A stretch of DNA of 64,000 nucleotides, taken from positions 29,152 through 93,151 of the IMG/VR virus record IMGVR_UViG_3300032285_001316; one strand, 5' to 3'. This document shows, in pieces, positions 15,479-45,522 of this stretch (position 1 is the first letter of the stretch; each line of letters opens with the position of its first letter). The DNA is from a virus. The notes beneath the pieces were generated by a model. That model worked only from the letters and a program-made list of their open reading frames with translations. It was not told where the DNA came from and searched no databases. The translations under genes were made by a program, and so were the position numbers.

Positions 15479-15717
15479 ATTTTCTCACTTCCCTTTCTTC
15501 CAATAGTCCACGTACACTGACGCAGATTCCAAATACACAAAAGGACATAAGCCCGATGCTTACTGCGGTAAAGATGTCCTCAATCATTAATCGTCTCCAA
15601 ACATCTCAAAAGACTTCTCTTGATAGTCGTCATACATCTCGTCACAGTAACAGGGCGAGAATCCGCAGGTAGAACAAGGCTCGTCCTGTTCCTCTTCCTC
15701 AATCATTGTTTTCTCCT

Positions 15718-15909
15718 TTATTCGTGGCTAATGCCGTGTTCTTGATCGATCTCAGTGTGGATGTCCCGCCTCAATCGGGGCAAGATCCATTTTTTAAATA
15801 CTACGTTGTACAGCAGGGCAATAACAATACCGTCAAAGATAACTGTCCAAAATAGTTCAGCGATGATGTGATTGGGGTCAGTGGCTATGTCCCACCATGT
15901 CTCAGTCAT
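15718..15909 (-). CDS. Small membrane protein
   Basis: One hydrophobic segment. Confidence 0.55.
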   Translation of the reverse strand: MTETWWDIATDPNHIIAELFWTVIFDGIVIALLYNVVFKKWILPRLRRDIHTEIDQEHGISHE

Positions 15910-16046
15910 CTAAGTACTCCTTTAGGCACACTACACATATTGGCGTGTAGTCCCCTTTATTGGAGAACATGACTGGGATATCGGGATGTCTCTCACACAT
16001 CCCCATATCCTCGTCTAGCCAGTTGTAATTTGTTTGTGTTGGACGT

Positions 16047-16430
16047 TTACGCAGCCCCTTGATAGAACCGCGTAATGTCTCCCACACGTCGTGCACGCGC
16101 GACATCTGCATCCTCCTCTTTCTTAGTAAGGACCTTCTTACGTTTCTCCATGGCACGGATGTGCTCTGGGATTATTGACTTGTCTCGTTCCATGATTCGG
16201 CGCTCATATTGTGTTGCGCCTCCCCAAATACCAAACTCCTCTTCGTTGGTAAGTGCGTAGTCTAAACACTGTTGCAGGATGTCACAGCGAGCACACACGT
16301 CGATTGCTTTAAGCATCTTGTGTGTCTTCTCACTTCCAGCACTAAACACTTCAGGAAAGAATATGTCTGGGTCAGTGTTTTGACAGTTAGCCTCATCGGC
16401 ATTGGGTACGTAGTTGATGAGGTTGAACAT
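16047..16430 (-). CDS. whiB: WhiB-family transcription factor
   Basis: ANC...DPDIFFPE...CARC....C...GIWGGATQYER. Confidence 0.92.
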   Translation of the reverse strand: MFNLINYVPNADEANCQNTDPDIFFPEVFSAGSEKTHKMLKAIDVCARCDILQQCLDYALTNEEEFGIWGGATQYERRIMERDKSIIPEHIRAMEKRKKVLTKKEEDADVARARRVGDITRFYQGAA

Positions 16431-16867
16431 TGCATCCTCCTTAGGACTTCATCATGAGTGACTGCAGGTGTCGGTATGCTTCATAGTTACCTTGCGTCCA
16501 TTCATCCATGTCCTCTCCATCAAAGCCCCACATCTCCATGTCATCTTCGATGGCGCGTACACGATCGCAGATGTACTTGAAGATGTCCTCGTTACTCATG
16601 AGTGCCACTAGTTATCTTCTCCTATGATGTCGTGCTCAAGAGCGAACGGCTCGAGAGTGTTATAGTCATCGCCCAGCGTCATGTTGAGCGATATAAGGAT
16701 GTTACCGTCAGCCTGTGACATTGCCACAGCCTCGGGAGCAAACGCGAGAACGTGCTCCATGATGTCGCTTAGTGTTGCCTTACTCATCTGTTTCTCCTTT
16801 TATCTCATCTATCGCTCTCCACCAGTTGAAGTGCGCGATTGTTCCTGAAGGCATATTACCGAAGATT

Positions 16868-17059
16868 TCAGTCACGATTTCCATCGCTCGTTTTCTTTCG
16901 TCTTGTCGTGCCTTTGCTATTGCTTGCTCCTTGTTCAGTGCCATTTACTTTCTCCTTATGACAATCACACGGACACACTAGGGGTGCGTTGTTCCATTCG
17001 AACTCGTTGATACATTCGCTATGCTGGCTGGTTAGACACCACCCGAACTTCAGACTCAT
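16868..17059 (-). CDS. Small Cys/His-rich protein
   Basis: WC...H..C...CPCDCH. Confidence 0.5.
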   Translation of the reverse strand: MSLKFGWCLTSQHSECINEFEWNNAPLVCPCDCHKEKVNGTEQGASNSKGTTRRKKTSDGNRD

Positions 17060-17801
17060 CTTCCTCCTTTGTTCCTGCGTTACGATACTCCTCTGCGTAC
17101 TCTACGTCCTTGATTTCAGCAGCCTCGGGAAGGTCATACCCAGACTCGGCTGCCTTAGCTGCCTCAAGAGCATCAACCTCAGTGCGCGCTTGTACATAGT
17201 ACTTGGTTACTACCTCAACTACATAAACGCTTTTGGTTTTGCCTGGGCAGTCATCGAACCAGTCGTCAGGGTCACTAGAGTTGGCGCACCAACACCCGTC
17301 TTCATCGTCACGTTTGACATAGTCTGCGTGAGATGATGGGCTGTCCCACTCCTCCATAGAGGTAAGGATGTTAGCCTTCATCGTGTACTCTGCGCCGTAC
17401 TGTTGCTCCTCTTCCCACCAGACATCGAACTCAAGAGCAGGATACTTAGCAGACATAGCTTCAATTACAGGCAGAGGGTGACTCCACGCTGTCTCAAAAG
17501 AGATGTACACGCTTGTAGGATCAACGGAGACCTCTGCGTTACAGGCATCCCATTTCGTATTCCAGTGGGCGTTGTTCCAGTCATACCAGACACCTCCTTT
17601 AGTTTCGCCAAAGGAGCTACCCTCTACAGGAGTTCCAAGGTATTCTTCCTTTGTTAGGTCAGGCGTTACAAAGGAGTGGAATGAGAATGGGGATGGTTCA
17701 TTACCAGCAAGCTTAGGGGTGTCCTCAATGTGTTCTAGGAACGCTATGCGGTCATCCTCTGGCCCAGTAATGCTAATGCGGTTGTATACCCAGTTAGGCA
17801 T
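17019..17801 (-). CDS. DUF1281 / YubB ferredoxin-like (Api92-like) protein
   Basis: MPNW..N...WYDWN..HWNTKWD...FETAWS.P. Confidence 0.75.
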   Translation of the reverse strand: MPNWVYNRISITGPEDDRIAFLEHIEDTPKLAGNEPSPFSFHSFVTPDLTKEEYLGTPVEGSSFGETKGGVWYDWNNAHWNTKWDACNAEVSVDPTSVYISFETAWSHPLPVIEAMSAKYPALEFDVWWEEEQQYGAEYTMKANILTSMEEWDSPSSHADYVKRDDEDGCWCANSSDPDDWFDDCPGKTKSVYVVEVVTKYYVQARTEVDALEAAKAAESGYDLPEAAEIKDVEYAEEYRNAGTKEEDESEVRVVSNQPA

Positions 17802-17829
17802 GATTATTCCTTTCGTTTGTTTGTGTTGG

Positions 17830-19779
17830 CTACACGCCAGCGTTGATTAGGTTGCGCTTGATGCCAAGGTTGACGATGCCACGACCAAGTGCGAACAGGT
17901 CATTGGTATCAGTGATGTGTACGGCTACCTCGCATCCGTGAGTATCTACGGGAGTATCATCATTGTGATACGTTTCTCGTGGGTCAGATACAAAGGCTAG
18001 TGCGGTAAGCACACCAGCACGACGGAACTCTTTGAGTAGCTTGTCACTTGCTTCGCTGTCACTCCATACACCATCAGTGATAGTGATACAGAGCTTGATA
18101 GCACGCTTAGACTCAGCAAGAACATTCTTGGCATACTTGAGCGTTTGTAGTGGCTCAGTACCACCACGACACCAAGACATGCGTACGTTAGTACTTACTC
18201 GCTCCTCAGAGGAGTAAAGGACAAACGGACGGTGGTCATAGGCAAGGACTGTAGTACTTGCGTTAGCACGATCAAGGGCACGCTTCATAGCCCACATGGA
18301 CTCGAACGCTCCCTTGGCCATACCCTGCATAGACCCAGAGATATCTAGCAGGATGACTGCCTCGATGTCTACGGCATCCTCACGCCCGATATCCCACTCA
18401 TCGAAGCACTCGTCAAGGTCAGTGCCTGTAACGTAGCGTTGGATGTTGAGACGCCCGTGCTCAGTACGGCGTAGCCAACCTGGGTCAAACTCTGCTCGCA
18501 ATCGCTCTAACTCGGTAGCAAAGGACTTGGAAGCCTGTGCTATTTCCTTAGGAACAACCTCGTCAAAGGTATCGAGACGTGATGGCTTGCCAGCATTGGT
18601 AGACGTAAGCTCAGCGTCTGCGTTGTACTGCTTGATTGTCTGGGCAATCTCACGCGCCTTAGACTGCTTGACCGTGTTGATGATGTCCTTGGCAATATCT
18701 GACAGGGACTTGTCACCAGTAGCAGAGCCACTGCCCATGGAGTCAGGCGTACCATCTTGAGCGCCCTCGTTGCCGTTGGTATCTGCGGATGTTGCGTTAT
18801 CCTGCTCGATAGCATCAGCCACACGTTCGCTAACCTTCTGCTGTTCTGCCTTGGACATGGGCTTAGACTTGGAAGCCTTCCACTCACCAGTAGCACGGTG
18901 GTCATGACCTGATGGGTCACTTACACGCTTCCACCCACTGTTGTTGTTCCAACTGTTGTTGTTCCAGTAGTCCGTAGACGTGCTAGGCAACTGGGTGATT
19001 AGTGCGTCGTACTTTTGGATAATGTCTAGCGCAACTGCGTAGTTCTTAGGGTCAGCAAGGTTGAGCACAATGTACTGGTCAATCAAGCTACCAATTTCCT
19101 GTACGTGCTGAGGCTGTTCGTACAAGTCAGCTACCTGCTTACGCAATTCCTTAGGCAAGTACTTGCGCCCATGGAGTAAAGGAAACGCTACATTCCATTG
19201 CTCAGGCTCATCCATGATGAACTTAGCGACTGCCGCCTTGAGCCAGTCAGCTACATTACCGAAACGCTTAGTCATATACATCTCGATACGCTGGTCTTCT
19301 AGAGCATTGAACGCCCGCCATAGACCCTGCTTCTGTACATCCTTGGCAAGGTTGCTACCAGCACGTGGGGTAAGGAGGATGTGGGCAATCTCGTGAAGGC
19401 TAAGCCCCTTGATGTTGAGCACGGTGTCGGGGCTGGTGAGATCCTGTAACGAGTTCTCGTGAAACCAGATGTTATCGGAGTCTGACCATGCGGGAGCGTC
19501 AGGCGTGCCCTGAGCCATCTTGCCCCCCATGTCTACACGGATGGGGCGCAAGGTAAGAGTGCTAGCGAACTTAGACACAACTTGTAGCATACGTACACGT
19601 CTAGCAGTGTCGGGGTCTAGCAGGTCGGTGTTGTAGAACTTAGGCGTGGAAATGTTTGTGTTGGTAGCATCCTCGCCTACTTGGATGTTGTCGATAGCGT
19701 CTACCATGTTCTGCACGTGCTTGTCCTTGGAGGACTGTATCGCAGACAGGATTGACTGTAGTGCGTCATCAGGGTTCAT
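17830..19779 (-). CDS. vWA-domain protein with N-terminal HExxH metallopeptidase-like domain
   Basis: HEIAH, NALEDQRIE, MIDAS DISGSM...GGT...ITDG. Confidence 0.85.
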   Translation of the reverse strand: MNPDDALQSILSAIQSSKDKHVQNMVDAIDNIQVGEDATNTNISTPKFYNTDLLDPDTARRVRMLQVVSKFASTLTLRPIRVDMGGKMAQGTPDAPAWSDSDNIWFHENSLQDLTSPDTVLNIKGLSLHEIAHILLTPRAGSNLAKDVQKQGLWRAFNALEDQRIEMYMTKRFGNVADWLKAAVAKFIMDEPEQWNVAFPLLHGRKYLPKELRKQVADLYEQPQHVQEIGSLIDQYIVLNLADPKNYAVALDIIQKYDALITQLPSTSTDYWNNNSWNNNSGWKRVSDPSGHDHRATGEWKASKSKPMSKAEQQKVSERVADAIEQDNATSADTNGNEGAQDGTPDSMGSGSATGDKSLSDIAKDIINTVKQSKAREIAQTIKQYNADAELTSTNAGKPSRLDTFDEVVPKEIAQASKSFATELERLRAEFDPGWLRRTEHGRLNIQRYVTGTDLDECFDEWDIGREDAVDIEAVILLDISGSMQGMAKGAFESMWAMKRALDRANASTTVLAYDHRPFVLYSSEERVSTNVRMSWCRGGTEPLQTLKYAKNVLAESKRAIKLCITITDGVWSDSEASDKLLKEFRRAGVLTALAFVSDPRETYHNDDTPVDTHGCEVAVHITDTNDLFALGRGIVNLGIKRNLINAGV

Positions 19780-19826
19780 TGTTTGCTCCTTTGTTTGTAG
19801 GAGGGGGGCTTGCGCCCCCCACCTGG

Positions 19827-21248
19827 TTAGTTAGTGGAGTACTTACCGATGCTAACGCCAAGCTCGTTGGCGATAGTAGGCGCTTCAGCATCAAAGCGCA
19901 TCTTGATAGCGTCACGCTCACCGTCCATCTTGGGGTAGTTGGACAGGAGAGAGTTGACCGCGAACTCAAAGTTCAGGCTCGTAGCATGAGACACAAAGTT
20001 CTTGAGGATACGAGTGGACATTGGTACAGAGAACTCATCGTTCATCTCGGATGCTTCACGGATATTGCTAGCAAATCCTAGGAGCGTGAAGGATGGGATG
20101 AAGTTACTCTCGATGTTGGTATCGTAGGTGAACTCCAACTTAGTACCGAAGCGGTCAATCAGCGCGGCATCTTGACGGCTAGTACCTGTGTACCCAATGC
20201 CTGTGTTCTGGTCGGCAATGAATAGCACGTCGGGGTGTACCTTGATGACCTCATTGAGTGGGTCGATACGCAACTCGCGCTCTTCCAAGAGGCTAAGGAA
20301 CAACGGAGCAGCCTTAGGAGTCATACGCGTCAACTCGTTGATGAGGATAACACTAGGCTGTTGGATTGCCGTAGCCAGTTGGCTGTACTTCCAGCGGGTA
20401 GTGTTACCTACGCCTGTCGGTACGAACCTACCCTGTGTAACTGTCTGGTCAATCTGCTGGGTACATTCGATGGTTACGAATGGCAAGCCCTTGATTGCCG
20501 CGTAGTTACGGGCACTCGATGTCTTACCTGTACCAGCATCACCAGTAAGCAAGACATTGTCTTGCTTGCTACGTGCGTTGTCGTATATCTGCTCCTCAGT
20601 AAGTCCAAAGAACTTACGTGTGAAGTAGGGCTTGACATCTGGCACGGTAAGCACTGCGCCATTCTCTGCGGTGCTGGCAACGATTGTGCTGTAATCCATG
20701 TCTGGCTCACTTTCTGTTGTCGGAGGCAATCCCACGGTGGGAAGCTCGTAGATAGGCTCACTCAAAGGTTGCGAAGCAACCCCCGCGTAAGCGGGCTCTA
20801 GTACTACTGGCTGTTCTACGGGAACAGGAACAACCTGAATGCTAGGGCTTACTACCACTGGGGTAGCAACAAGATACTTAGCAAGTACTGCTGGGTTAGC
20901 GATCGCGGCATCCATCACTTCGTCATAGACTTCGTGGAATGGGCGACCACTTACCGTATCCATATCCTTTACTGTGCGTACAAGCTTCTGTACTAGCACG
21001 GTAGGGGTGATTGGGAACTGAAGCATCTGGTAATCGGCTGGGGTAAGGGCTACTGACATAGGCACGCCTACGCTATCACCTACGAAGCTCAGCACATCTC
21101 CACCAGATAGCTCTCGCCAAGCACCTGCCGTACCCCTAAGCCCCTTACCATCACGGGTGAACCTACGGATATTGCCGTCTTGTAGAGGCACAATAACTAC
21201 CTGCTGAATACCTGTTGGGGTATCTTGCTGAAGGATAGTCGCGAACAT
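19827..21248 (-). CDS. MoxR/CbbQ-type AAA+ ATPase
   Basis: GDAGTGKT Walker A, ILINE Walker B variant, DAALIDRF, STR sensor. Confidence 0.85.
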   Translation of the reverse strand: MFATILQQDTPTGIQQVVIVPLQDGNIRRFTRDGKGLRGTAGAWRELSGGDVLSFVGDSVGVPMSVALTPADYQMLQFPITPTVLVQKLVRTVKDMDTVSGRPFHEVYDEVMDAAIANPAVLAKYLVATPVVVSPSIQVVPVPVEQPVVLEPAYAGVASQPLSEPIYELPTVGLPPTTESEPDMDYSTIVASTAENGAVLTVPDVKPYFTRKFFGLTEEQIYDNARSKQDNVLLTGDAGTGKTSSARNYAAIKGLPFVTIECTQQIDQTVTQGRFVPTGVGNTTRWKYSQLATAIQQPSVILINELTRMTPKAAPLFLSLLEERELRIDPLNEVIKVHPDVLFIADQNTGIGYTGTSRQDAALIDRFGTKLEFTYDTNIESNFIPSFTLLGFASNIREASEMNDEFSVPMSTRILKNFVSHATSLNFEFAVNSLLSNYPKMDGERDAIKMRFDAEAPTIANELGVSIGKYSTN

Positions 21249-21535
21249 TACTTATCTCCTTTGTTGTTTAGAACAATGCGCTTGTATTGGACATTGTCTG
21301 TGTGGTTGTTTACGTACTCGCTATCAAACTCGATGCGACTACTGGGTAGGTCATTGTCTAACAACCTATCCTCTAAGTACCTGACTAGGTCAAGCACTGC
21401 GTAGGGGTCATTACTTGTGTCGAAGTACAGGGCATCTAGTACCGTGTACAACTCTCGTGCCGTAAACACTACGTCTACGGTTGTGCTGTCGATGGGGTCT
21501 AGAGTCTCTACAACCTCATCATCTATCTCTAACAT
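21248..21535 (-). CDS. Acidic hypothetical protein directly downstream of the hammerhead
   Basis: AAAAGGAG RBS. Confidence 0.6.
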   Translation of the reverse strand: MLEIDDEVVETLDPIDSTTVDVVFTARELYTVLDALYFDTSNDPYAVLDLVRYLEDRLLDNDLPSSRIEFDSEYVNNHTDNVQYKRIVLNNKGDK

Positions 21536-21547
21536 GGGCTCTCCTTT

Positions 21548-21616
21548 TGACTCATCAGGCTAGGCTCTTACCTAGCGACGTGTAGCCCCCACACACAAGG
21601 GCTACACGTTTCGTCA
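21548..21616 (-). ncRNA. Hammerhead ribozyme, type II
   Basis: Minus strand: UGAC-GAAAC-GUGUAGCCC(loop)GGGCUACAC-GUC^-GCUAGG(UAAGAG)CCUAGC-CUGAUGA-GUCA. Complete core and three stems; predicted cut between 21577 and 21576. Confidence 0.93.
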
Positions 21617-21631
21617 TCTCCGAAGAGGGGC

Positions 21632-21799
21632 TCAGATAATCTCTGTGCGTGTCTCGCAGTAATCTACGCAACTAGGGCAGTCAGGGTCACCACAAGGGCA
21701 AGGCTCACCGTCTAGGTATGCGTACATCTTTGCGAGTGCTTCATCCTCACTGTCTGCTGTGACAGTGTAGGACTCTCCTGTGAGGATTGTGTACTCCAT
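21632..21799 (-). CDS. 55-aa Cys-rich protein MEYTILTGESY...CPCGDPDCPSC (not in ORF track)
   Basis: AAGGAG RBS; coupled. Confidence 0.55.
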   Translation of the reverse strand: MEYTILTGESYTVTADSEDEALAKMYAYLDGEPCPCGDPDCPSCVDYCETRTEII

Positions 21800-21957
21800 T
21801 ACTTACTCCTTAGGTTGAGTAGTACTAGGGCTAGTGCGCTCCCTAGGGCTACGGCTATGCTGACGGAATTGTTTGTGTTGGCAAGGCTTGCGCCTAGTGC
21901 GCTTGTCACGCCTAGCAGGGCGCACATTGTCGCGCCTAGCTTGAGATACCTAATCAC
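21799..21957 (-). CDS. 52-aa membrane peptide (not in ORF track)
   Basis: GTG start after GGAG; two hydrophobic stretches. Confidence 0.45.
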   Translation of the reverse strand: MIRYLKLGATMCALLGVTSALGASLANTNNSVSIAVALGSALALVLLNLRSK

Positions 21958-22205
21958 TTTGCGCTCCAATCAACTTGGTAGTACAAGTCCATGTGTAACT
22001 TGTACTCGTACTCTGACTCTTCTTGTGAGTTTGAGTAGGCGTCGTTGATTAGCTCCCAACCGTAATTGGCAGACTCATCTTTGACGTAGGTCTGTACTGC
22101 GTACCATGAGTCACCGTCGCTCTGGTCTACCAAGATAGTCAGGTAGTAATCATCGCTGTACTCGTGTAGTACATTCTCTGTTTCTTCCCAAGTGACTAGG
22201 GACAT
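21954..22205 (-). CDS. Acidic hypothetical protein
   Basis: AAAGGAG RBS before ATG 22205. Confidence 0.55.
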   Translation of the reverse strand: MSLVTWEETENVLHEYSDDYYLTILVDQSDGDSWYAVQTYVKDESANYGWELINDAYSNSQEESEYEYKLHMDLYYQVDWSAK

Positions 22206-22445
22206 TGCTTGCTCCTTTGTTATGTGTGTGAGAGTAGGCAGTTTAGACACTTGCCTAGGTGCTTCCTTTGATCCAAGGGCGGTCACTTTAACGGCTCGTG
22301 CTACGGACGCTCGTCATGATTGCCTAACGCGGTCATAAATCGCGACTATTTCAAAGGTCTACTATGAGCCAAGACATCATCACTAGCCCTTGCGGGGGGA
22401 CTATAGTCTCGTCACTGCGCGCCCTCAGGCATAGTTACCTCTTAC

Positions 22446-22613
22446 CTATCGAGAATTACATCTCTCTAGGAAGTTCTTGACGGCTTCACTCTTGGTGAAG
22501 TCGAAGTACTGGCAGTGCTCTAGGTAGGCGTGGATACCATCCACTACTACGGCTGAACACTCCCAAGCACCTTGAGAGGTACGTCTTACGGATACGTCAC
22601 TCTTGGTAACCAT
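22446..22613 (-). CDS. 55-aa hypothetical protein (not in ORF track)
   Basis: TAATG coupling to the upstream ORF. Confidence 0.45.
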   Translation of the reverse strand: MVTKSDVSVRRTSQGAWECSAVVVDGIHAYLEHCQYFDFTKSEAVKNFLERCNSR

Positions 22614-22822
22614 TAGTCCGTGTACCCTTCTACGAGCGTGCCATCTTCGGCAAGACTATCTGCGTAGTCTGCTTCTCCTACACGGTAGGCGATAGGGTCG
22701 CACAACCTAAGAATTGCGGAAGGCGAAAAGCTTACGTACCCCATCTTGTAGATTGGGTAAACCTCATCGAGCATCTCTTCGTAAAGCTCAATGAACTTCT
22801 CGTGTGTGATTGTTGTTGCCAT
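22613..22822 (-). CDS. Hypothetical phage protein (LDE.Y...S..L...DPIAY)
   Basis: AAGGAG RBS. Confidence 0.6.
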   Translation of the reverse strand: MATTITHEKFIELYEEMLDEVYPIYKMGYVSFSPSAILRLCDPIAYRVGEADYADSLAEDGTLVEGYTD

Positions 22823-22832
22823 GAGTATCTCC

Positions 22833-23174
22833 TTAGTTCTTGTGTGTGATTAGTGTTAGTACTTCTTCGAGCTTAGAGTCGGATAGACCTAGGTCATCTC
22901 CCTCATCATCTACGCCCCCAACTAGGATGGCGTCGCCCATGATGATGTCTGTCGCCCCAAAGCGCGTTCTAAAGAGCAACGTCGCTAAGAGGTTGAGAGG
23001 TAAGCCGTCGAGCTTTCCCTCTTCGTTGACGTACATAGTGAGGTCATCATCTAGGCTAACGGCTTCGATGTATCCTCCTACGGCGTCGCTAATGACTCTG
23101 TATGAGCCCTCAGGTGCGTCTAGGTCGACTGTCTGTATGCTCTTAGAGGCTCTGACAATAAGTGCTTTGCGCAT
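22833..23174 (-). CDS. DUF3846-domain protein
   Basis: VGGYIEAV...VNEEGKL.GLP.N..AT...I.GD. Confidence 0.85.
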   Translation of the reverse strand: MRKALIVRASKSIQTVDLDAPEGSYRVISDAVGGYIEAVSLDDDLTMYVNEEGKLDGLPLNLLATLLFRTRFGATDIIMGDAILVGGVDDEGDDLGLSDSKLEEVLTLITHKN

Positions 23175-23434
23175 TAGAGGCTCCTCTCTATGTATTCTGA
23201 TTGTGCTTTGACTAGACGCTTTAGGGCGCTAATCGTGTCGTGCATTTTCTCTACGCGATGCTCATAGGCGTTGACTGTTGCCTCTAGGTCTCGCTCTAGG
23301 TCTTTCTCCACACTAGAAAGGTTCTCTACTGTGAACTGATGCTCTAGCAAGTACCTTTCGTAATTGCTAATGTCTTGCGCTTTGTCTGCGAATAGAAGCT
23401 CATACTCCCACTCCGCTAATGGCTCTTTGCTCAT
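23174..23434 (-). CDS. Coiled-coil hypothetical protein
   Basis: AAAGGAG RBS. Confidence 0.55.
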   Translation of the reverse strand: MSKEPLAEWEYELLFADKAQDISNYERYLLEHQFTVENLSSVEKDLERDLEATVNAYEHRVEKMHDTISALKRLVKAQSEYIERSL

Positions 23435-23750
23435 CTTGCTTTGCTCCTTTACTCTAGGGCTACCCTAAGGACGCCCAAGCTTGTGGGGGTTCTAGGGGGC
23501 GAGAGCCCCCTAAGTCTCTTTCGAGAGGCTTTGTGTGTTATCTAGAGAGATAAAGACTTATAGAGAGAGACACACATACGTCTATACACGCTCTCCCTAT
23601 AAGCCCTCACCTGTTACATATGACATACCCTAAGAGAGTTTCTCTATCGTGGGGATTCTGTCTTATGCCTGACTTATGTACATACCATGCCTAAGAGTGA
23701 CTCTCACCCTTGTTAGCCTATGGCGATGTGCTTCCTAAGCCTAGAAACAC

Positions 23751-23780
23751 AAAAAGCCCTACAGGCTTACCTGTAAGGCT
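23751..23780 (-). terminator. Intrinsic terminator
   Basis: Minus strand AGCCTTACAGG-TAAG-CCTGTAGGGCT-TTTT. Confidence 0.75.
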
Positions 23781-23876
23781 CTCTCTGATGCTAGTACCTG
23801 ATACGAGTAAGGGGGGCTAGTCTGCGACCTGGCGGTACACTCGCTTAGCCCCCCTCTCTCTTAGAGCAGTAGCCTA

Positions 23877-24236
23877 TTAGGCGTTGATCAGCTCTACAAT
23901 GTCTTCCCAGCCTGCGTTGAGACCGAGACCCTTGATGATGCTAAGGCATTCGGTGCTTACCGCGTAGGCAAAGGAGTCTTTCCGTGCCTGCTCACTCTCG
24001 TAGGCAGACTTAGGCATACCCTTGAAAGCCTGGTATGCCTGGGCAATCTGAGGGATAGTGAAGAAACCGCCAAGGCTAGTTACCTCGTATTCGCGCGAGA
24101 GAACCTCAGCACGCTTAGCGCGCTTGAAGTCAAGCACGAATGGGCGGAACTGGGGCATACCCTCTAGCACGCGTAGTTGTGCGGGCGTAGCGGTTTCGAG
24201 GTTGAGTGCGTCGGCGGTAATAACTGAAGTAGACAT
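23877..24236 (-). CDS. Hypothetical protein, first gene of the leftward block
   Basis: AGAAAGGGGG RBS; flanked by structured non-coding DNA. Confidence 0.6.
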   Translation of the reverse strand: MSTSVITADALNLETATPAQLRVLEGMPQFRPFVLDFKRAKRAEVLSREYEVTSLGGFFTIPQIAQAYQAFKGMPKSAYESEQARKDSFAYAVSTECLSIIKGLGLNAGWEDIVELINA

Positions 24237-24637
24237 ATGTCTACCCCCTTTCTTATGTGTGTGTTTAGTTGGGGCGAATACCCCTTAGAGCCTAGGTGCG
24301 AGACATAAGCCCTAAGGGGAACAGGGTGCGCACGCGCCTTAGAGACACGCACGCGCCCTGCCCGTGTAAACACACGGAAAGATTACCTAGCCCCGTTAGC
24401 GCGTCTCTCACACGCGCCTAGGGGCGTTGCCGTATTAGGGCGGAAACCACAGTTGCCGAAGCCCCTGCGTCTAAGACAAACCTAGCCCAAGACCTGCCAA
24501 AGTAACCGCACGCTTAGCCAGTAAGCACCAGGTGAGAAACACGGTTGAGGCCCTCTCAATCTAGGCAGTAGCCTAAATCGGCCACAGTAGCTCAATTAAC
24601 AGATAGATCGCCCCTACCGATGTGGCAGACTTGATAT

Positions 24638-25062: not shown

Positions 25063-25404
25063 ATGACAACCCCAGAAAATACCCCCAAAAGCTCGTGGAC
25101 ACCAGCAGAGTGCGCGCACTGTGGCTATGAGGTAGTACCTGCAGAAGTAGGTCACGAGATCCACGGTAGTCACTGGGAAGAACCTTCCCCAAATGGTTGG
25201 GTACACAACCCCGCCACGGTAGGCAAGCACTGGACAGAGAATTACGACACCAAGACTCACGCAGCCATGCCTTACGACGGACGTACAGTAGAGCAGGAGC
25301 ACGCTGGGGCTGAGGAGTTCCAACGTCAACTGGACGCGACGCACACAAAAGCGGCCTTCGAACAGATCATGAAGAACAATAACCTAGGGCGACAGTTCGA
25401 CTAA
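25063..25404 (+). CDS. His-rich hypothetical protein ending NNLGRQFD
   Basis: CAHC...H...H pattern. Confidence 0.55.
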   Translation: MTTPENTPKSSWTPAECAHCGYEVVPAEVGHEIHGSHWEEPSPNGWVHNPATVGKHWTENYDTKTHAAMPYDGRTVEQEHAGAEEFQRQLDATHTKAAFEQIMKNNNLGRQFD

Positions 25405-25757
25405 TGAGCCAAAGAGAAGCCTTTGAGAACGGTAAAGAACACTTTACCTATCAGTTCCACCAGGCACCAACGTACGCAGGTACGCACGAAGTAACTGCCC
25501 ACGACACCAAGGGCAAGAAGGTTGGCTCCCTCACATGGAACGCCAACGAGATCGAGAACATCGACGTAGCTAAAAAGCATCAGGGCAAGGGTATAGCCGA
25601 GAGTATGCTCGTCCATGCTAGGCGTCAAGCAAATGACGAAAAAGCCCCTGTGCCCTCACACAGCCTCACTCGCACCCGTGCAGGACATGCATTTGCTAAA
25701 AAAACTGGCGGCGCAGGAAGCGCCATTCCAGATAAGTACATCACGTTCCTAGACTAG
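25404..25757 (+). CDS. GNAT-family acetyltransferase
   Basis: IENIDV...HQGKGIA acetyl-CoA motif A; T..G..F. Confidence 0.8.
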   Translation: MSQREAFENGKEHFTYQFHQAPTYAGTHEVTAHDTKGKKVGSLTWNANEIENIDVAKKHQGKGIAESMLVHARRQANDEKAPVPSHSLTRTRAGHAFAKKTGGAGSAIPDKYITFLD

Positions 25758-25801
25758 GTTTCTGGCACACTAGTTAATGGGGAGCTGACTAGTGGAGTGA
25801 C

Positions 25802-26038
25802 ATGTCACGCATTCTTGATATCTTCTTGCGTATCTTAGCGGTGTTCAGCATTTCGGCCCTTTCTGTAGTTGGAGCTGGTGCGGTCGTGCATGTGGACCCC
25901 CTCCAAACGATCTTGATGGCAGGCATTCTTGGTGTAGCCAATGTTCTAGAAGAACTAGCTCGTAAGTATGTTAATGACGGTCGTTTAAGTGATGACGAGA
26001 TCAACGAGACGTTTAAAAAGGCTAGCGAGGCCGATTAA
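25802..26038 (+). CDS. Small two-TM membrane protein (holin-like candidate)
   Basis: Two hydrophobic helices followed by DGRLSDDEIN tail. Confidence 0.5.
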   Translation: MSRILDIFLRILAVFSISALSVVGAGAVVHVDPLQTILMAGILGVANVLEELARKYVNDGRLSDDEINETFKKASEAD

Positions 26039-26075
26039 CCATAAAACGAGGGTTCTTCCTGGCACACTTGAATCT

Positions 26076-26561
26076 ATGAACAGAAACGAGCACTTTGCTG
26101 CGGGAACTGATGACGGTCGGTCGCATGAGGTCCCATACTGGCATTGGGATCCTAACGGGGGCTCTGAGGTACGGCACTCTACCTTAGGTAAAACCGTTAC
26201 AGACGAAGATCGCTGGGTGTTTCAAAACGGTCAGTGCCATGCGTTGGCGGAGCATCTCCATAAGTCCGAAGGGCACCCTATTTACTCGGTGTCAGAGCAC
26301 GGCATGTCTGGCAAGCGAGAGGTCACACACTTTGTTAACGCACACAAAGATGACCCCAACCTTATTCACGATGCTGATGGTTGGCAAAATATTCAAGATT
26401 TTCATGAAAAGTGGGATCCAAGTGGGAACAACCGCGTAATTCTGCGTAAAGTCAGTTTGAAGGCTATGCAGCAACGTACTGAAAATAACCCAGACTGGCT
26501 AGCCCCACACCACGAGGGTGCAGCGGCGTTTTACTCCCGTAGCAACAAGGGAAATCGTTAA
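26076..26561 (+). CDS. Putative Cys-His-Asp (papain/transglutaminase-like) enzyme with N-terminal EHFAAG motif
   Basis: NGQCHALA...THFVN...IHDADG; leaderless ATG 26076. Confidence 0.5.
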   Translation: MNRNEHFAAGTDDGRSHEVPYWHWDPNGGSEVRHSTLGKTVTDEDRWVFQNGQCHALAEHLHKSEGHPIYSVSEHGMSGKREVTHFVNAHKDDPNLIHDADGWQNIQDFHEKWDPSGNNRVILRKVSLKAMQQRTENNPDWLAPHHEGAAAFYSRSNKGNR

Positions 26562-26597
26562 CCCTTAACACACTGGTTATTCTGGCACAATTGTTCT

Positions 26598-26741
26598 ATG
26601 AGTGATAACTGGCGTAAGGCCCTAGAGCAGAAGGCCAAAGAAGCTGAGGCGGCGGATAAGCGTCCCCTGGCTACGGTTACTCCTATTACCCAGGCTCCAA
26701 GTGTTCGTTCAAAGATGCAGGCTGAGTCAAGTAAGCACTAA
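26598..26741 (+). CDS. 47-aa leaderless peptide MSDNWRKALEQ... (not in ORF track)
   Basis: TGGCACAAT 6 nt before ATG. Confidence 0.5.
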   Translation: MSDNWRKALEQKAKEAEAADKRPLATVTPITQAPSVRSKMQAESSKH

Positions 26742-26792
26742 AACAGCTTTGCTTACTAGCACAATTAATTAACAAGCTTTAAAGGAGCCCTC

Positions 26793-27032
26793 ATGGCTAA
26801 GAATCTCAAAGACTTTGGTAATAAGGTAGCTACAGCTGCTGGCTGGGCAACAGTCCCTGCCATTGTTACCGCTCAAGCATTGGGTGCAGGCACTAACGTA
26901 GCTGCAAACTTGGGCGCTGCTGGCTTGGCTGCAGGTATCGGTGCTGGAGCTGCAGTAGTTGGCCAACGTCGTCAGGTTGTTCGCAACCGTAAGGCCCACG
27001 CAATGGACGCATTTAACAGCGCACGCAAGTAG
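26793..27032 (+). CDS. Ala/Gly-rich small protein
   Basis: AAAGGAG RBS. Confidence 0.55.
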   Translation: MAKNLKDFGNKVATAAGWATVPAIVTAQALGAGTNVAANLGAAGLAAGIGAGAAVVGQRRQVVRNRKAHAMDAFNSARK

Positions 27033-27213
27033 CAGGGGCCTTCTTAGGTTAAAAAATGATGCGAAACCGCTATATCCTTAAGGGAGCCAACTACCTGGCA
27101 GCTGAGGCATATGCTGAAGAGCAGGGCTGGGAAGCCACCGAATGGATCTATTTTGGCGCTACAACCGCCGAATTGATCATTATTGATCTCGAAGACAAGG
27201 ATGTGAACTGGTA

Positions 27214-27411
27214 ATGCGCGACAATCACGAAGCACGTACCAATCTGTACGAAACAGCCAAGAAAATCGGTCTAGGCAACAGCATCGAAGACCCTCAGACA
27301 GGCACACACTGGGTAGACCTCTCTGGCTTGACCCCCGAACAGGTGTACCAGCACCCTCTTTTTGGCTCTGAAAAGCCTTGGGAACGCGAAGAACGAGAAA
27401 AAGGCAAGTAA
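27214..27411 (+). CDS. Hypothetical protein
   Basis: TAATG-coupled to a 52-aa ORF at 27056..27214. Confidence 0.5.
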   Translation: MRDNHEARTNLYETAKKIGLGNSIEDPQTGTHWVDLSGLTPEQVYQHPLFGSEKPWEREEREKGK

Positions 27412-27618
27412 ATGGCATCTATCTCTGACTCAATTGCCCTTATTGGCCTCATTTTGGGCTTTTCATTCCTCTACATCGTCAAATATGACAGTCTGAACCC
27501 CAAAACTAAGCGTTTTATGTGGGTTCTTGGCCTTCTTATCCTTCTCTATGTTGTTTTTACTTACGCTGACGACTTCGTTATCGACGTAAAGAACTTCATT
27601 GCCGCGATCAACGCGTAA
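27412..27618 (+). CDS. Two-TM membrane protein
   Basis: Two hydrophobic helices. Confidence 0.55.
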   Translation: MASISDSIALIGLILGFSFLYIVKYDSLNPKTKRFMWVLGLLILLYVVFTYADDFVIDVKNFIAAINA

Positions 27619-27663
27619 AAAAATAGGTCGCGTCGGGAAAAAACGGGTAGGAAAGATAAAAGT

Positions 27664-27915
27664 ATGGGCCAGAGCAAGCGTGGGCGCACCTTTAAAACGG
27701 GTGAAGCCAAAAAAAGCTACTATGAGCGCCTAGAGCACTACAATGCTACTGGGACATGGCCTAAGGCTAAAAGTGCTCTTAGCGGGGCACAGAAGGCTCC
27801 TGAGGCACATTCTGAGGTGCATCCAGAAGAACAAGCGCCTGCAGCTGCTCCTCACCCCACTCTTTTTGATCTAGACATCCCTACCCCACCTTCTAGGGGC
27901 ACGTTCGACCACTAG
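27664..27915 (+). CDS. Hypothetical protein
   Basis: 83-aa ORF. Confidence 0.5.
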   Translation: MGQSKRGRTFKTGEAKKSYYERLEHYNATGTWPKAKSALSGAQKAPEAHSEVHPEEQAPAAAPHPTLFDLDIPTPPSRGTFDH

Positions 27916-27923
27916 TAGCCTTA

Positions 27924-27951
27924 TTGACACCGTTTTTTTATGGTGTAACAT
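27924..27951 (+). promoter_or_regulatory. SigA-type promoter
   Basis: TTGACA-N16-TAACAT. Confidence 0.6.
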
Positions 27952-27957
27952 AGTTAC

Positions 27958-28004
27958 TAGCTGGGCGGCGGTTTTTCCTCCTTTCTTCCGCCGCCTAGCC
28001 TTTT
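27958..28004 (+). ncRNA. Candidate small RNA hairpin with anti-Shine-Dalgarno loop
   Basis: 12-bp stem GCUGGGCGGCGG/CCGCCGCCUAGC, loop UUUUUCCUCCUUUCUU, U-tail, upstream promoter. Confidence 0.55.
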
Positions 28005-28080
28005 CTCAGTTTTTTTAGGCAATGCCTTCTGAGGTTGTTCTCTACACTTAAAAATAGAGATTACAACCCTAGGAGATATC

Positions 28081-29244
28081 TTGACTATTTACGACTTCCC
28101 ACCCATGACATGGAGCGACTTCCTCGCTATCCCAGATGGTGAGACTGTCCACAACTACGGCGCGCAGGAATGTGTCGCTCTTGCAAACCTGTACGCAACA
28201 TCCGTACTTGGCTGCAACCTCCGCACTGTAAACATCGGTTCTGCCGAAGAGTGGTGGACCACTGACGCGATCCTCGATGCATGGGGCTTTGACCGTGTTA
28301 CCGAAAACCCACAGGTTGGTGACATCTTCATTGGTTCGTTCGGTCTGTATGACAGCCAGTTCGGTCACATCGGTGTTGTTGTCCGTGCATGGGATGGCTC
28401 GACCTTCGGAACCATGGAGCAGAACGTAGGCCGTGAGGTTGTCTCACGTCACGACCGCACCATGCGTAACATTGACGGATTCCTGCGTACCCGCAACCAG
28501 GCTGCTATTGGTGGGGGCGCTCCTACACCTGCCCCTGCAGCTAACCTCGCTCCTACACAGCGTCAGGCTGGCCCTCTCGGTGTATTCCGTCGTGCAGAGC
28601 CTAATCAGTCGTCAGAGCACCTTGACGGTGACCTCGAGGCTGGCGAAGTTGGTAACTTCGTAGGCTATGTCCACGGTGAAGACCGTGGCGGAAACGACAT
28701 CTGGTTCCAGGGTGTATCGGGCAACTACTTCTGGTCAGGTGCCTTCACAGACTCAGGAACACACGATTTGCCTGATCTGAACGCTCCTGCAGCTCCTGCA
28801 CCTGCTCCCGAGCCAGCACCAGTGGCTGACCCAGCTCCAGCAGCACCCGTTGCTGATCCAGCTCCCGTAGAGCCTGCGCTTGTAAATGTAGACCCTACTC
28901 CCCTCCCCTCCGTAACCCCCACCTCAACAACGTCTGACGTTGTTGCCCCAGTAAAGGAAGCCCCCGTGCCACTCACCGCTGAAGAAATTGCAAAGCAAAC
29001 CGCTTCGATCGAGGCTCTTCCCGAGCCAGACCTCGGTGCGATCATCCCTACCGCTAAGGGTCGCAAGGTTGCTTACGCACTGTACGCAGGTGTTTCACTT
29101 GTCGTAGCTAACACCGCAGTAGCATTCGCCGCACTCCAGACGGCATTCCCCGCATGGTTGGTAGTTGCCCTTGCCGTAGTTGGCAACCTGGCCACACCAT
29201 TCAGCGCGATTGCTATCGCCAACGCGAAGAACGCATCTAAGTAA
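28081..29244 (+). CDS. Endolysin: CHAP domain, SH3-like segment, Pro/Ala linker, C-terminal TM helices
   Basis: YGAQECVAL...VGDI...FGHIGVV...MEQN; TTG start after AGGAG. Confidence 0.82.
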   Translation: MTIYDFPPMTWSDFLAIPDGETVHNYGAQECVALANLYATSVLGCNLRTVNIGSAEEWWTTDAILDAWGFDRVTENPQVGDIFIGSFGLYDSQFGHIGVVVRAWDGSTFGTMEQNVGREVVSRHDRTMRNIDGFLRTRNQAAIGGGAPTPAPAANLAPTQRQAGPLGVFRRAEPNQSSEHLDGDLEAGEVGNFVGYVHGEDRGGNDIWFQGVSGNYFWSGAFTDSGTHDLPDLNAPAAPAPAPEPAPVADPAPAAPVADPAPVEPALVNVDPTPLPSVTPTSTTSDVVAPVKEAPVPLTAEEIAKQTASIEALPEPDLGAIIPTAKGRKVAYALYAGVSLVVANTAVAFAALQTAFPAWLVVALAVVGNLATPFSAIAIANAKNASK

Positions 29245-30411: not shown

Positions 30412-30566
30412 ACGAAAGCTAACACAGGCTGTTAGCCGTAGGACTCTCCTTAACGGGAGGTGCCCTAGCTGGGCCTCACGAGTGTGCCCCTCCAAAACAG
30501 TTGTATGCCATAACCCCCGCCGTTGACCTCCCTACTATCTGGGAATGCCGATGACGGGGGTTTTGT
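30412..30566 (+). ncRNA. Candidate structured ncRNA 1
   Basis: TGCTACACT extended -10, serial hairpins, terminal AACCCCCG/CGGGGGTT stem plus T-run; no ORF. Confidence 0.45.
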
Positions 30567-31827: not shown

Positions 31828-31904
31828 GCCCCCTTAACTCAGTTGGTCAGAGTGCGATACTTGTAATATCGAAGTCAGGCGTTCGAACCGCCTAGGGGGC
31901 CCCA
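31828..31904 (+). tRNA. tRNA-Thr(UGU) with encoded CCA
   Basis: GCCCCCT/AGGGGGC acceptor stem, D arm, CGATA-CTTGTAA-TATCG anticodon arm, TTCGAAC T loop. Confidence 0.93.
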
Positions 31905-44277: not shown

Positions 44278-45012
44278 ATGTGCACTATAGAAAACTGCGA
44301 AAAAGAGACACATTCAAAGGGGCTGTGCCAAGCGCACTACCGACAAGAATTGCGGCGTGCCCGAGGCCTTAAAAAACCAGGGCCAAAGCCAGACCCCACT
44401 AAATTCCGTTCACGGCATAACCCCGACAACCCCTCTCGTTCTCGTGAGCCTAAGGGGCGCTCTCTCAAAGAAGAGTGTGTCTGGGGGCACGCATACGCCG
44501 AGCACGGGACTGTTCGAGGAGACGGGAAGCGCATCTGTAAAGAGTGCCAGCGTATTCGCACAGAAAAGTATCGCAATAAAGTTTCTCCAGACCGTAAACG
44601 CTGGGAGAGCAAAGAAGTACGTCTAGCCTCTAAGGAAAAGCGCAAGGCGGATAAAGAATACCGACAGACGCACTGCAAACGTGGGCATGAATACACCGAA
44701 GAAAATACAATTTATTATGAGAAGTTTCGTCATTGCCGTAGCTGTAGCCGCATTCGTCAACTAGAACGCAACTACGGCGTTACTGAGCAACACGTAGAGG
44801 AGATGCTTTCTAACCAAGAGAGTTCTTGCGCGATTTGTAAAGTGCCATTTGAGGGAACCCCTCGCGTAGATCACGACCATGAAACAGGGGACGTGCGCGG
44901 TCTTCTATGCCATTCCTGCAATACTCTCTTAGGGCACGCTAAAGATAGCGTCGAAACGCTTAAATCAGCTATTGAATACCTTGAGAAGTTTAGCGACAAA
45001 ACTGCAGAGTAA
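44278..45012 (+). CDS. Free-standing Endonuclease VII-type homing endonuclease with repeated Zn modules
   Basis: CAIC...VDHDHETG.VRGLLC..CN..LG; C..GH...C..C modules. Confidence 0.85.
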   Translation: MCTIENCEKETHSKGLCQAHYRQELRRARGLKKPGPKPDPTKFRSRHNPDNPSRSREPKGRSLKEECVWGHAYAEHGTVRGDGKRICKECQRIRTEKYRNKVSPDRKRWESKEVRLASKEKRKADKEYRQTHCKRGHEYTEENTIYYEKFRHCRSCSRIRQLERNYGVTEQHVEEMLSNQESSCAICKVPFEGTPRVDHDHETGDVRGLLCHSCNTLLGHAKDSVETLKSAIEYLEKFSDKTAE

Positions 45013-45474: not shown

Positions 45475-45522
45475 GTCCGTCTCGCTGGTCATCTGCCCTC
45501 CTCACCAGCGAGGCGGACTTTT
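45475..45522 (+). terminator. Terminator hairpin with C-rich anti-SD-like loop
   Basis: 15-bp stem GTCCGTCTCGCTGGT/ACCAGCGAGGCGGAC, loop CATCTGCCCTCCTC, T-run. Confidence 0.7.

Follow-up and report, generated by a model that had tools for sequence, protein, structure and literature searches.

A promoter-driven hairpin with a loop matching the 16S rRNA 3' tail is conserved among relatives of an environmental phage

Upstream of the CHAP endolysin gene of an environmental phage, a promoter-like sequence is followed at once by a G+C-rich hairpin (hairpin B) and a U-rich tract, which raises the question whether this locus is an ordinary terminator or encodes a small RNA whose loop imitates the end of 16S rRNA. 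The window, i.e., the whole stretch of DNA that was analyzed, spans 64,000 nt (bases 29152-93151 of a complete IMG/VR phage genome of 93,151 bp with terminal repeats of 123 bp and a G+C content of ∼50%). Its portal protein shares 58% identity with the portals of Streptomyces phage BRock and relatives, and related portals (77-89% identity) could be identified on at least 599 environmental contigs. Because the portal resembles those of the BRock group and these environmental portals, the host of the phage is likely an actinobacterium. Searches of cultured-phage DNA with the hairpin region, and with a tRNA-like element found beside it in relatives, gave no match. The 83-aa protein encoded upstream of the hairpin has a single homolog. 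The features discussed are collected in Table 1.

Table 1. Positions of the features discussed (window numbering unless a contig is named)
Feature	Position	Strand	Remarks
-35 hexamer TTGACA	27924..27929	+	intergenic
-10 hexamer TAACAT	27946..27951	+	16-nt spacer from -35
Hairpin B, 5' arm	27960..27971	+	pairs with 27988-27999
Hairpin B, open loop	27972..27987	+	16 nt, UUUUUCCUCCUUUCUU
Hairpin B, 3' arm	27988..27999	+	homology with L315 stops exactly at 27999
U-rich tail	28000..28016	+	specific to this phage; 5 U in first 8 nt, then a 7-U run
ORF of 83 aa	27664-27915		family not recognised; upstream neighbour of hairpin B
Predicted leader stem	28025-28078	+	predicted to sequester the endolysin SD (28070-28076); small hairpin 28040-28061 at its core
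CHAP endolysin gene	28081-29244		downstream neighbour of hairpin B
Ribonucleotide reductase small subunit gene			after the CHAP endolysin gene
Structured region without ORF	30462-30518		behind the reductase gene; 88% identical to L315:3664-3720
tRNA-Thr	31828-31901		ARAGORN: 31828-31904
Top predicted pairing partner of the loop	24244..24254	-	SD of gene 23877-24236(-); 11 contiguous pairs, one G-U
tRNA-like element in relatives	L112:3416-3495; L315:3173-3254; L161:8512-8591	(-) in L161	further copies in L424-L439
Hairpin A	G000:C1:25526-25571		3.6 kb upstream of the window; 15-bp stem, 16-nt loop UUUUCCCCCCAUUUUU
Hairpin C	45475-45518		15-bp stem, 14-nt loop ending GCCCUCCUC, U-tail; terminator
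Hairpin D in relatives	e.g. L057:4122-4152; L079:13792-13830		loop UACUCCUUCUU

An earlier note on this DNA had described a TTGACA-N16-TAACAT promoter, a 12-bp GC-rich hairpin with a 16-nt loop and a U-tail, and every detail matches the sequence. The promoter scores 10/12 and is the top match within the 12 kb scanned; in the whole genome, sites scoring at least 10/12 comprise this intergenic one and four inside ORFs. Transcription would likely start at A27959 or G27960. The stem begins 8 nt past the -10 hexamer. The stem consists of 12 bp, with 10 G-C pairs and one G-U. A folding energy of -25.7 kcal/mol (z = -4.2) was obtained for the 71-nt stretch. For a 50-nt RNA starting at A27959, z was -7.2, the hairpin accounted for 97% of the ensemble, and the whole loop was unpaired. 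The U-rich tail (28000-28016) is probably an intrinsic termination tract.

The 16S rRNA tail used for comparison reads ACCUCCUUUCU, the host's own tail being deduced from its likely phylum. Loop positions 27977-27986 read CCTCCTTTCT, which is exactly how 16S rRNA of the Gram-positive type ends (10 nt). The tail ACCUCCUUUCU agrees with data on mycobacterial 16S rRNA, which carries CCUCCU and ends 11 nt past the cut between C and ACCU (PMC12274833). In the window, CCTCCTTTCT occurs exactly once, at 27977-27986, and with at most one mismatch 4 times versus 4.8 expected. The word itself is therefore not enriched, and the unusual feature is its position.

Homologs were searched by three routes, none of which depended on the stem of hairpin B. 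A hairpin scan combined with a promoter-plus-loop pattern identified L112/L113, a 79-kb contig, the same promoter-plus-loop pattern in metagenomes identified L315, among the matches listed, and a T-arm anchor on the neighbouring tRNA-like element, which is unrelated to the hairpin, identified L427. Including this phage, at least four sequences carry true homologs of the unit (L315, L112/L113 and L427 being the others). L315 is a syntenic close relative in which the promoter-hairpin unit is 85% identical and homology covers 27909-27999, ending at the 3' foot of the hairpin. All four homologs have TTGACA, a 16-nt spacer and TAnnnT, and the hairpin follows after 6-8 nt. The -35 hexamer and the spacer length are identical in L315, L112, L427, L161, L426, L425, L432, and L436, and the -10 hexamer of relatives reads TAATAT, TAAACT or TAGTAT at the same spacing. 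Conservation of the -35 hexamer is not explained by coding, because it is intergenic both here and in L315.

The loop is identical to that of hairpin B at 16/16 positions in L315 and at 14/14 in L112, where the sole difference is the lack of two 5' U residues, and the L427 loop has one extra C, one U-to-C change and no last U. All four retain the complete 10-nt 16S-tail word. In the promoter spacer, by contrast, 4/16 positions differ in L315 and 11/16 in L112. Across the four homologs all 48 pair cells of the stem are paired (100%), and 4 of the 12 pairs show compensatory double changes, a covariation score that was equalled by 0/500 shuffles; slid controls were 35-60% paired. Since the loop stays constant while the stem covaries and the spacer diverges, hairpin B is a selected RNA structure, and its loop is selected as well. 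Loop conservation with stem covariation in related phages, which the earlier note had named as a check, was thus observed. A covariance model (R1) built from two sequences found in 39 related records only the known copies and one unrelated pyrimidine-loop terminator. A stem-anchored pattern (GCTGGG, gap, loop) matched only L112 and L113, the remaining matches being reverse strands of ordinary SD-plus-start sites.

The surroundings of the unit differ between this phage and its relatives, a context that had been overlooked before: in relatives, promoter and hairpin head a tRNA-like/tRNA operon. The U-tail is missing in all three homologs (L315, L112, and L427); instead, the hairpin of relatives is followed by 5 nt (AUCUA or GUCUA) and then by an 80-nt tRNA-like element, behind which lie tRNA-Trp in L315 and a terminator in L112. 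With the U-tract and endolysin found here, the unit is thus kept through three different downstream arrangements, which argues that it is a module. In all 15 distinct copies of the tRNA-like element, G3.U70 and A73 are kept, the acceptor stem covaries and the T-arm is standard. G3.U70 together with A73 makes up the identity set for alanine that tRNA-Ala and tmRNA carry. The copies also keep a GGUGUCGAUUG stretch reminiscent of the D-loop analogue of tmRNA, their stem is capped by a 3-bp mini-hairpin in place of an anticodon arm, and the versions in L441 and L444 end in CUCCACCA. Neither ARAGORN nor Rfam called the element, which resembles a tmRNA that retains only the tRNA-like domain. Because identity set, acceptor stem and T-arm are kept, the elements are plausible substrates of RNase P, which processes pre-tmRNA and the phage C4 antisense RNA (PMC11143913). 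In relatives, RNase P cleavage at the element would free the hairpin with a 5-nt tail.

The tRNA-like element, even its T-loop word, is absent from the genome of this phage. The structured region at 30462-30518 matches a stretch that in L315 lies downstream of the tRNA cluster, and because of this match the endolysin-reductase block looks inserted into an ancestral non-coding RNA cluster. Judged by this comparison, the block replaces the tRNA-like/tRNA cluster of the relatives. Eight related loci show no synteny around the endolysin gene and yielded no homolog of the hairpin element. An Rfam scan of the whole window at gathering level identified only tRNA-Thr, and at 21541-21630 it gave no hammerhead. 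The 152-nt endolysin leader folds at -47.3 kcal/mol (z = -5.3) with hairpin B intact and with the leader stem of Table 1 independent of the loop. As this predicted local stem would already bury the endolysin SD, a cis role of the loop at the endolysin gene is not required.

Since the loop is a single-stranded copy of the 16S 3' tail, it is able to base-pair with SD regions. Among 144 translation-start regions, the SD of gene 23877-24236(-) ranked first (-16.0 kcal/mol), and the 11-nt pairing with one G-U that had been proposed before this gene is real. The gene itself is absent from G027 and G045, relatives that keep the hairpin. It is therefore unlikely to be a selected target, and the earlier naming of it as a specific target was rejected. 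The energy of loop pairing correlates with that of 16S-tail pairing across start regions (r = 0.77). Because pairing tracks SD strength, the RNA would hit every strong SD, including those of the phage itself. The loop finds its best partners in the leftward operon, whose SDs are extended, and the core match of the loop to an ordinary SD is only 5-7 bp. The statement that the loop can pair with AAAGGAG ribosome-binding sites of many early genes fits at least seven minus-strand sites between 15 and 24 kb, which have an SD of the A(A/C)AAAGGAG type with a start codon close behind. The leftward operon (15700-24260, minus strand) differs by this extended SD from most rightward genes. No specific conserved target of the loop was found in these comparisons, and the pattern of pairing, as predicted, fits a general SD competitor rather than a specific switch.

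It is tentatively proposed that hairpin B may well be a stable RNA that mimics the 16S tail and pairs with SD regions, like the 6C or CcsR sRNAs. Of the mechanisms considered, SD pairing is the most economical. Promoter, fold, open loop, conservation with covariation, and complementarity are established directly. A strong host-type promoter would make an RNA that starts at the foot of the 12-bp G+C-rich hairpin, and in this phage some of the transcripts would stop at hairpin and U-tract, yielding a stable RNA of ∼47-57 nt. We infer that such a discrete RNA is made, is abundant and pairs with SDs in vivo. Its single-stranded loop, which repeats the 16S 3' tail, would pair best with SDs of the extended AAGAAAGGAGG type and compete with 30S subunits for SD regions, and translation initiation on messages with a strong SD, from the host or the phage, would be reduced in trans. 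On read-through transcripts the loop may also act in cis. As in a trans-acting sRNA, the element is served by a promoter of its own, its 3' end is set by the U-tract here and by the RNase P site of the tRNA-like element in relatives, both ends being predicted, and a conserved single-stranded seed lies inside a covarying structure. With regard to a conserved complementary target, the top phage target is not conserved, and generic SD complementarity is conserved trivially. Of the trans-acting, SD-blocking sRNA suggested in the earlier note, the conserved promoter-driven RNA element thus stands; the roles in host shut-off or in an early-to-late switch draw no support from these data, and the specific target is weakened, as the named gene is not conserved and the pairing tracks SD strength.

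In bacteria, it is established that sRNAs can block ribosome-binding sites by means of C-rich loops. To our knowledge, such RNAs have hardly been described in phages and not at all in phages of Actinobacteria, and neither Actinobacteria nor mycobacteriophages are mentioned in a review of phage sRNAs from 2025 (PMC12197685). At gathering level, no Rfam family matched hairpin B. The nearest families below threshold were the anti-SD-loop sRNAs CcsR1/cuckoo (RF02791; 18.1 bits and E = 0.03, with a gathering threshold of 65.3) and the AbcR-type ar15 (RF02345; 18.6 bits, with a threshold of 40), neither of which was reached, and 6C RNA (RF01066) gave no match to hairpin B at E up to 10. Readings as a CRISPR-repeat mimic, a retron or a riboswitch found no support in Rfam.

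By analogy, the 6C sRNA is the nearest functional counterpart within the phylum of the likely host, with no homology to hairpin B. In Actinobacteria, its C-rich loops bind a G-rich ribosome-binding site without a chaperone, neither Hfq nor ProQ being involved (PMC6486639). In contrast to hairpin B, which is a single hairpin with a CCUCCUUUCU loop and at most two adjacent C, 6C is chromosomal and has at least two hairpins with runs of at least six C. CcsR1-4/cuckoo (alpha-r14) are alphaproteobacterial RNAs whose several stem-loops are reported to display an anti-SD motif of the CCUCCUCCC type (PMC4615179); compared with these, hairpin B comes from another phylum, is single and has CCUCCU but not CCUCCUCCC. 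CcsR1 and ar15 are thus regarded as analogues and not as relatives. Among phages, the closest precedent, again by analogy, is the c4 antisense RNA of P1 and P7, a phage sRNA that likewise masks a ribosome-binding region with bases displayed in a loop (PMC12197685). RNase P acts on the c4 precursor (PMC11143913), and the same is proposed here for the hairpin transcript of relatives. Unlike the loop of hairpin B, which is a generic SD complement, c4 hits one message (ant/icd) via two matched segments. Judged against these systems, hairpin B is a new, phage-borne version of the anti-SD-loop sRNA theme.

The loop theme is wider than the four homologs. The same loop core occurs in L161 and L426 and in three unrelated viral or metagenome contigs of 58-67% GC (L155, L176, and L401), of which L401 also has the full 10-nt tail word. 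These three carry a TTGACA-type promoter and, 7-13 nt past the -10, a G+C-rich stem of 9-10 bp; a terminator hairpin lies 12 to ∼110 nt beyond the loop hairpin in L155 and L401, and in L176 an mRNA start lies ∼60 nt beyond it, placing the hairpin in a 5' UTR. Among 75 matches of the same pattern in bacterial genomes, only three had enclosing stems of at least 9 bp, one of these being A/U-only and one enclosing a 24-nt loop. Within the phage genome, the intergenic long-loop hairpins richest in G-C pairs (10 each) are A, B and C, all with C/U-rich loops of 14-16 nt. The loop 9-mer of hairpin C is kept in 28 of 30 unique homologs with 24 different 5' arms. Hairpin C, a terminator behind the capsid-proximal genes, follows the 126-aa gene that lies downstream of the gene for the major head protein. 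In hairpin D of relatives, the loop is conserved, the stem covaries and a U-tail is lacking. It lies 12-25 nt upstream of an UUAGGAGAA SD (AGGAG), and the gene next upstream of the one it precedes ends in KVYTN and is presumably the major head protein gene. Hairpin D may be a cis-acting anti-SD element. In the window, hairpin D is absent before the 126-aa gene, and an HNH/endonuclease VII gene (44278-45012) follows the major head gene. Hairpins C and D both show CUCCU or CCUCC in their loops. For these two and for L176, the icaR mRNA of Staphylococcus aureus is relevant, in which a 3'-UTR anti-SD reportedly acts in cis (PMC3868564). From the icaR element, hairpin B differs in having its own promoter and in being placed before non-coding genes in relatives.

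If the loop does compete for SD sites, this would be a very simple viral means of biasing translation that needs no chaperone. A large, environmentally abundant phage lineage keeps this minimal, one-hairpin copy of the ribosome's docking tail, and the loop theme recurs at two other conserved sites near the capsid genes. The tRNA-like processing handle would be a compact route to defined small RNAs.

The 16S-tail mimic has to be weighed against a generic 5' leader hairpin of a stable-RNA operon, protecting the RNA from 5'-end-dependent RNases or aiding its processing. According to this explanation the loop sequence is secondary and the hairpin was left over here when the tRNA-like gene was replaced. 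Indeed, every lineage with a conserved promoter and leader before the tRNA-like element has a hairpin 6-13 nt past the -10, elements inside a tRNA array have none, and the homology with L315 stops at the hairpin's 3' foot. The loops vary among these lineages: at the same +1 position L425 has a UUCG tetraloop, L424 and L436 have a conserved purine-rich 10-nt loop on a covarying stem, L430 has a long leader hairpin, and in L161 and L426 the tRNA-like element is preceded by a pair of leader hairpins whose loops are C/U-rich. As sister lineages carry other loops, the anti-SD loop is dispensable for a general leader-hairpin role, and part of the constraint may act on the 5' hairpin as such. On these alignments, the hairpin at +1 is a general feature and the anti-SD loop a lineage-specific elaboration. 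However, a protective hairpin needs no open loop of 14-16 nt. This loop stays unchanged within the lineage despite divergence of the promoter spacer and the stem, it turns up again in unrelated phages, and this phage retained promoter and hairpin without the tRNA-like gene. A generic leader is considered unlikely.

The position 80 nt upstream of the CHAP endolysin gene suggests a second explanation, in which the terminator-like hairpin is an attenuator or leader of the endolysin operon that halts most transcripts until an antiterminator acts. This would resemble lambda PR'-tR', where a constitutive promoter and a close terminator before a lysis gene yield a short transcript, the 6S RNA. No convincing promoter could be found between hairpin and endolysin gene, and L006, which has no portal and belongs to a different phage (G001), also has a promoter and a long-loop hairpin before an endolysin gene. 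The likeness to lambda is limited, however: inspection of the first transcribed bases (27959-27975) revealed no -10-like pause word, no antiterminator or Q-like gene was noticed, the unit of relatives precedes tRNA-like genes rather than a lysin and has no U-tail, and the conserved loop, which has no lambda counterpart, is left unexplained. An attenuator is therefore rather unlikely.

Third, the loop could be an abundant copy of the 16S tail that soaks up a tail-recognizing factor, such as a MazF-type toxin that cuts the anti-SD and is set free upon infection. Identity does run past CCUCC to the full 10-nt tail word (window, L315, L112, L427, and L401), the loop contains the words at which MazF-mt6 (UUCCU) and MazF-mt3 (UCCUU) cleave, and relatives co-transcribe the hairpin with the Ala-type tRNA-like element, another mimic of the translation apparatus. 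In mycobacteria, another paralog, MazF-mt11, removes the anti-SD tail (PMC12274833). The loop lacks the CACCU word required by MazF-mt11, and a decoy for this toxin was ruled out. Against a decoy in general, the extra bases are equally well accounted for by an extended SD complement, and the idea, being purely inferential, appears rather improbable. A broader version, quite improbable in our view, would make the hairpin one half of a toolkit of translation-apparatus mimics that, under one strong promoter, reprograms or protects host translation: the 16S-tail loop would be a decoy for MazF-mt3/MazF-mt6-type toxins or for all strong SD sites, joined in relatives to the 80-nt alanine-type tRNA-like RNA.

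A protein-binding antitermination hairpin of the nut or put kind, heading an untranslated operon, would explain why the element is promoter-proximal with a conserved loop and a covarying stem, and the tRNA-like operon of relatives is untranslated and would be exposed to Rho. Yet leader loops vary between sister lineages, neither a boxA-like element nor a candidate protein is present, and the CUCCU theme also appears in hairpins C and D, at sites where antitermination would serve no purpose, which makes this explanation very unlikely.

That hairpin B is just the intrinsic terminator of the upstream operon (25063-27915) and the promoter a chance match, as its G+C-rich stem and U-rich tail 45 nt past a stop codon and the location of hairpins A and C right after stop codons would allow, is barely credible and is already contradicted by the comparative sequence data: Rho-independent terminators have short, unconstrained loops (3-8 nt; this genome has tetraloop terminators elsewhere) and no promoter before the hairpin, whereas here a 16-nt conserved loop follows, 8 nt downstream, a TTGACA-N16-TAnnnT promoter that lies between stop codon and hairpin and is conserved in sequence, spacing and distance, and the stem is shared without the U-tract by L315, L112, and L427. 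The earlier view of a promoter-driven element that is not merely a terminator therefore holds.

A minus-strand reading, in which an SD in the loop would feed a small ORF, was rejected, the nearest ATG being 25 nt away and, by inspection, absent in L315. Two further hairpins were observed near SDs. Hairpin A, with a 6C-like loop, is located between a stop codon (13 nt upstream) and the next SD (12 nt downstream). In L291, a Bacilli MAG, a consensus promoter (reverse complement, 267 onward) precedes a 14-bp hairpin whose loop reads UUCUUCCUCCUUUCAUU, and a gene's strong SD comes 14 nt behind the hairpin; this is the same architecture in a bacterial 5' UTR.
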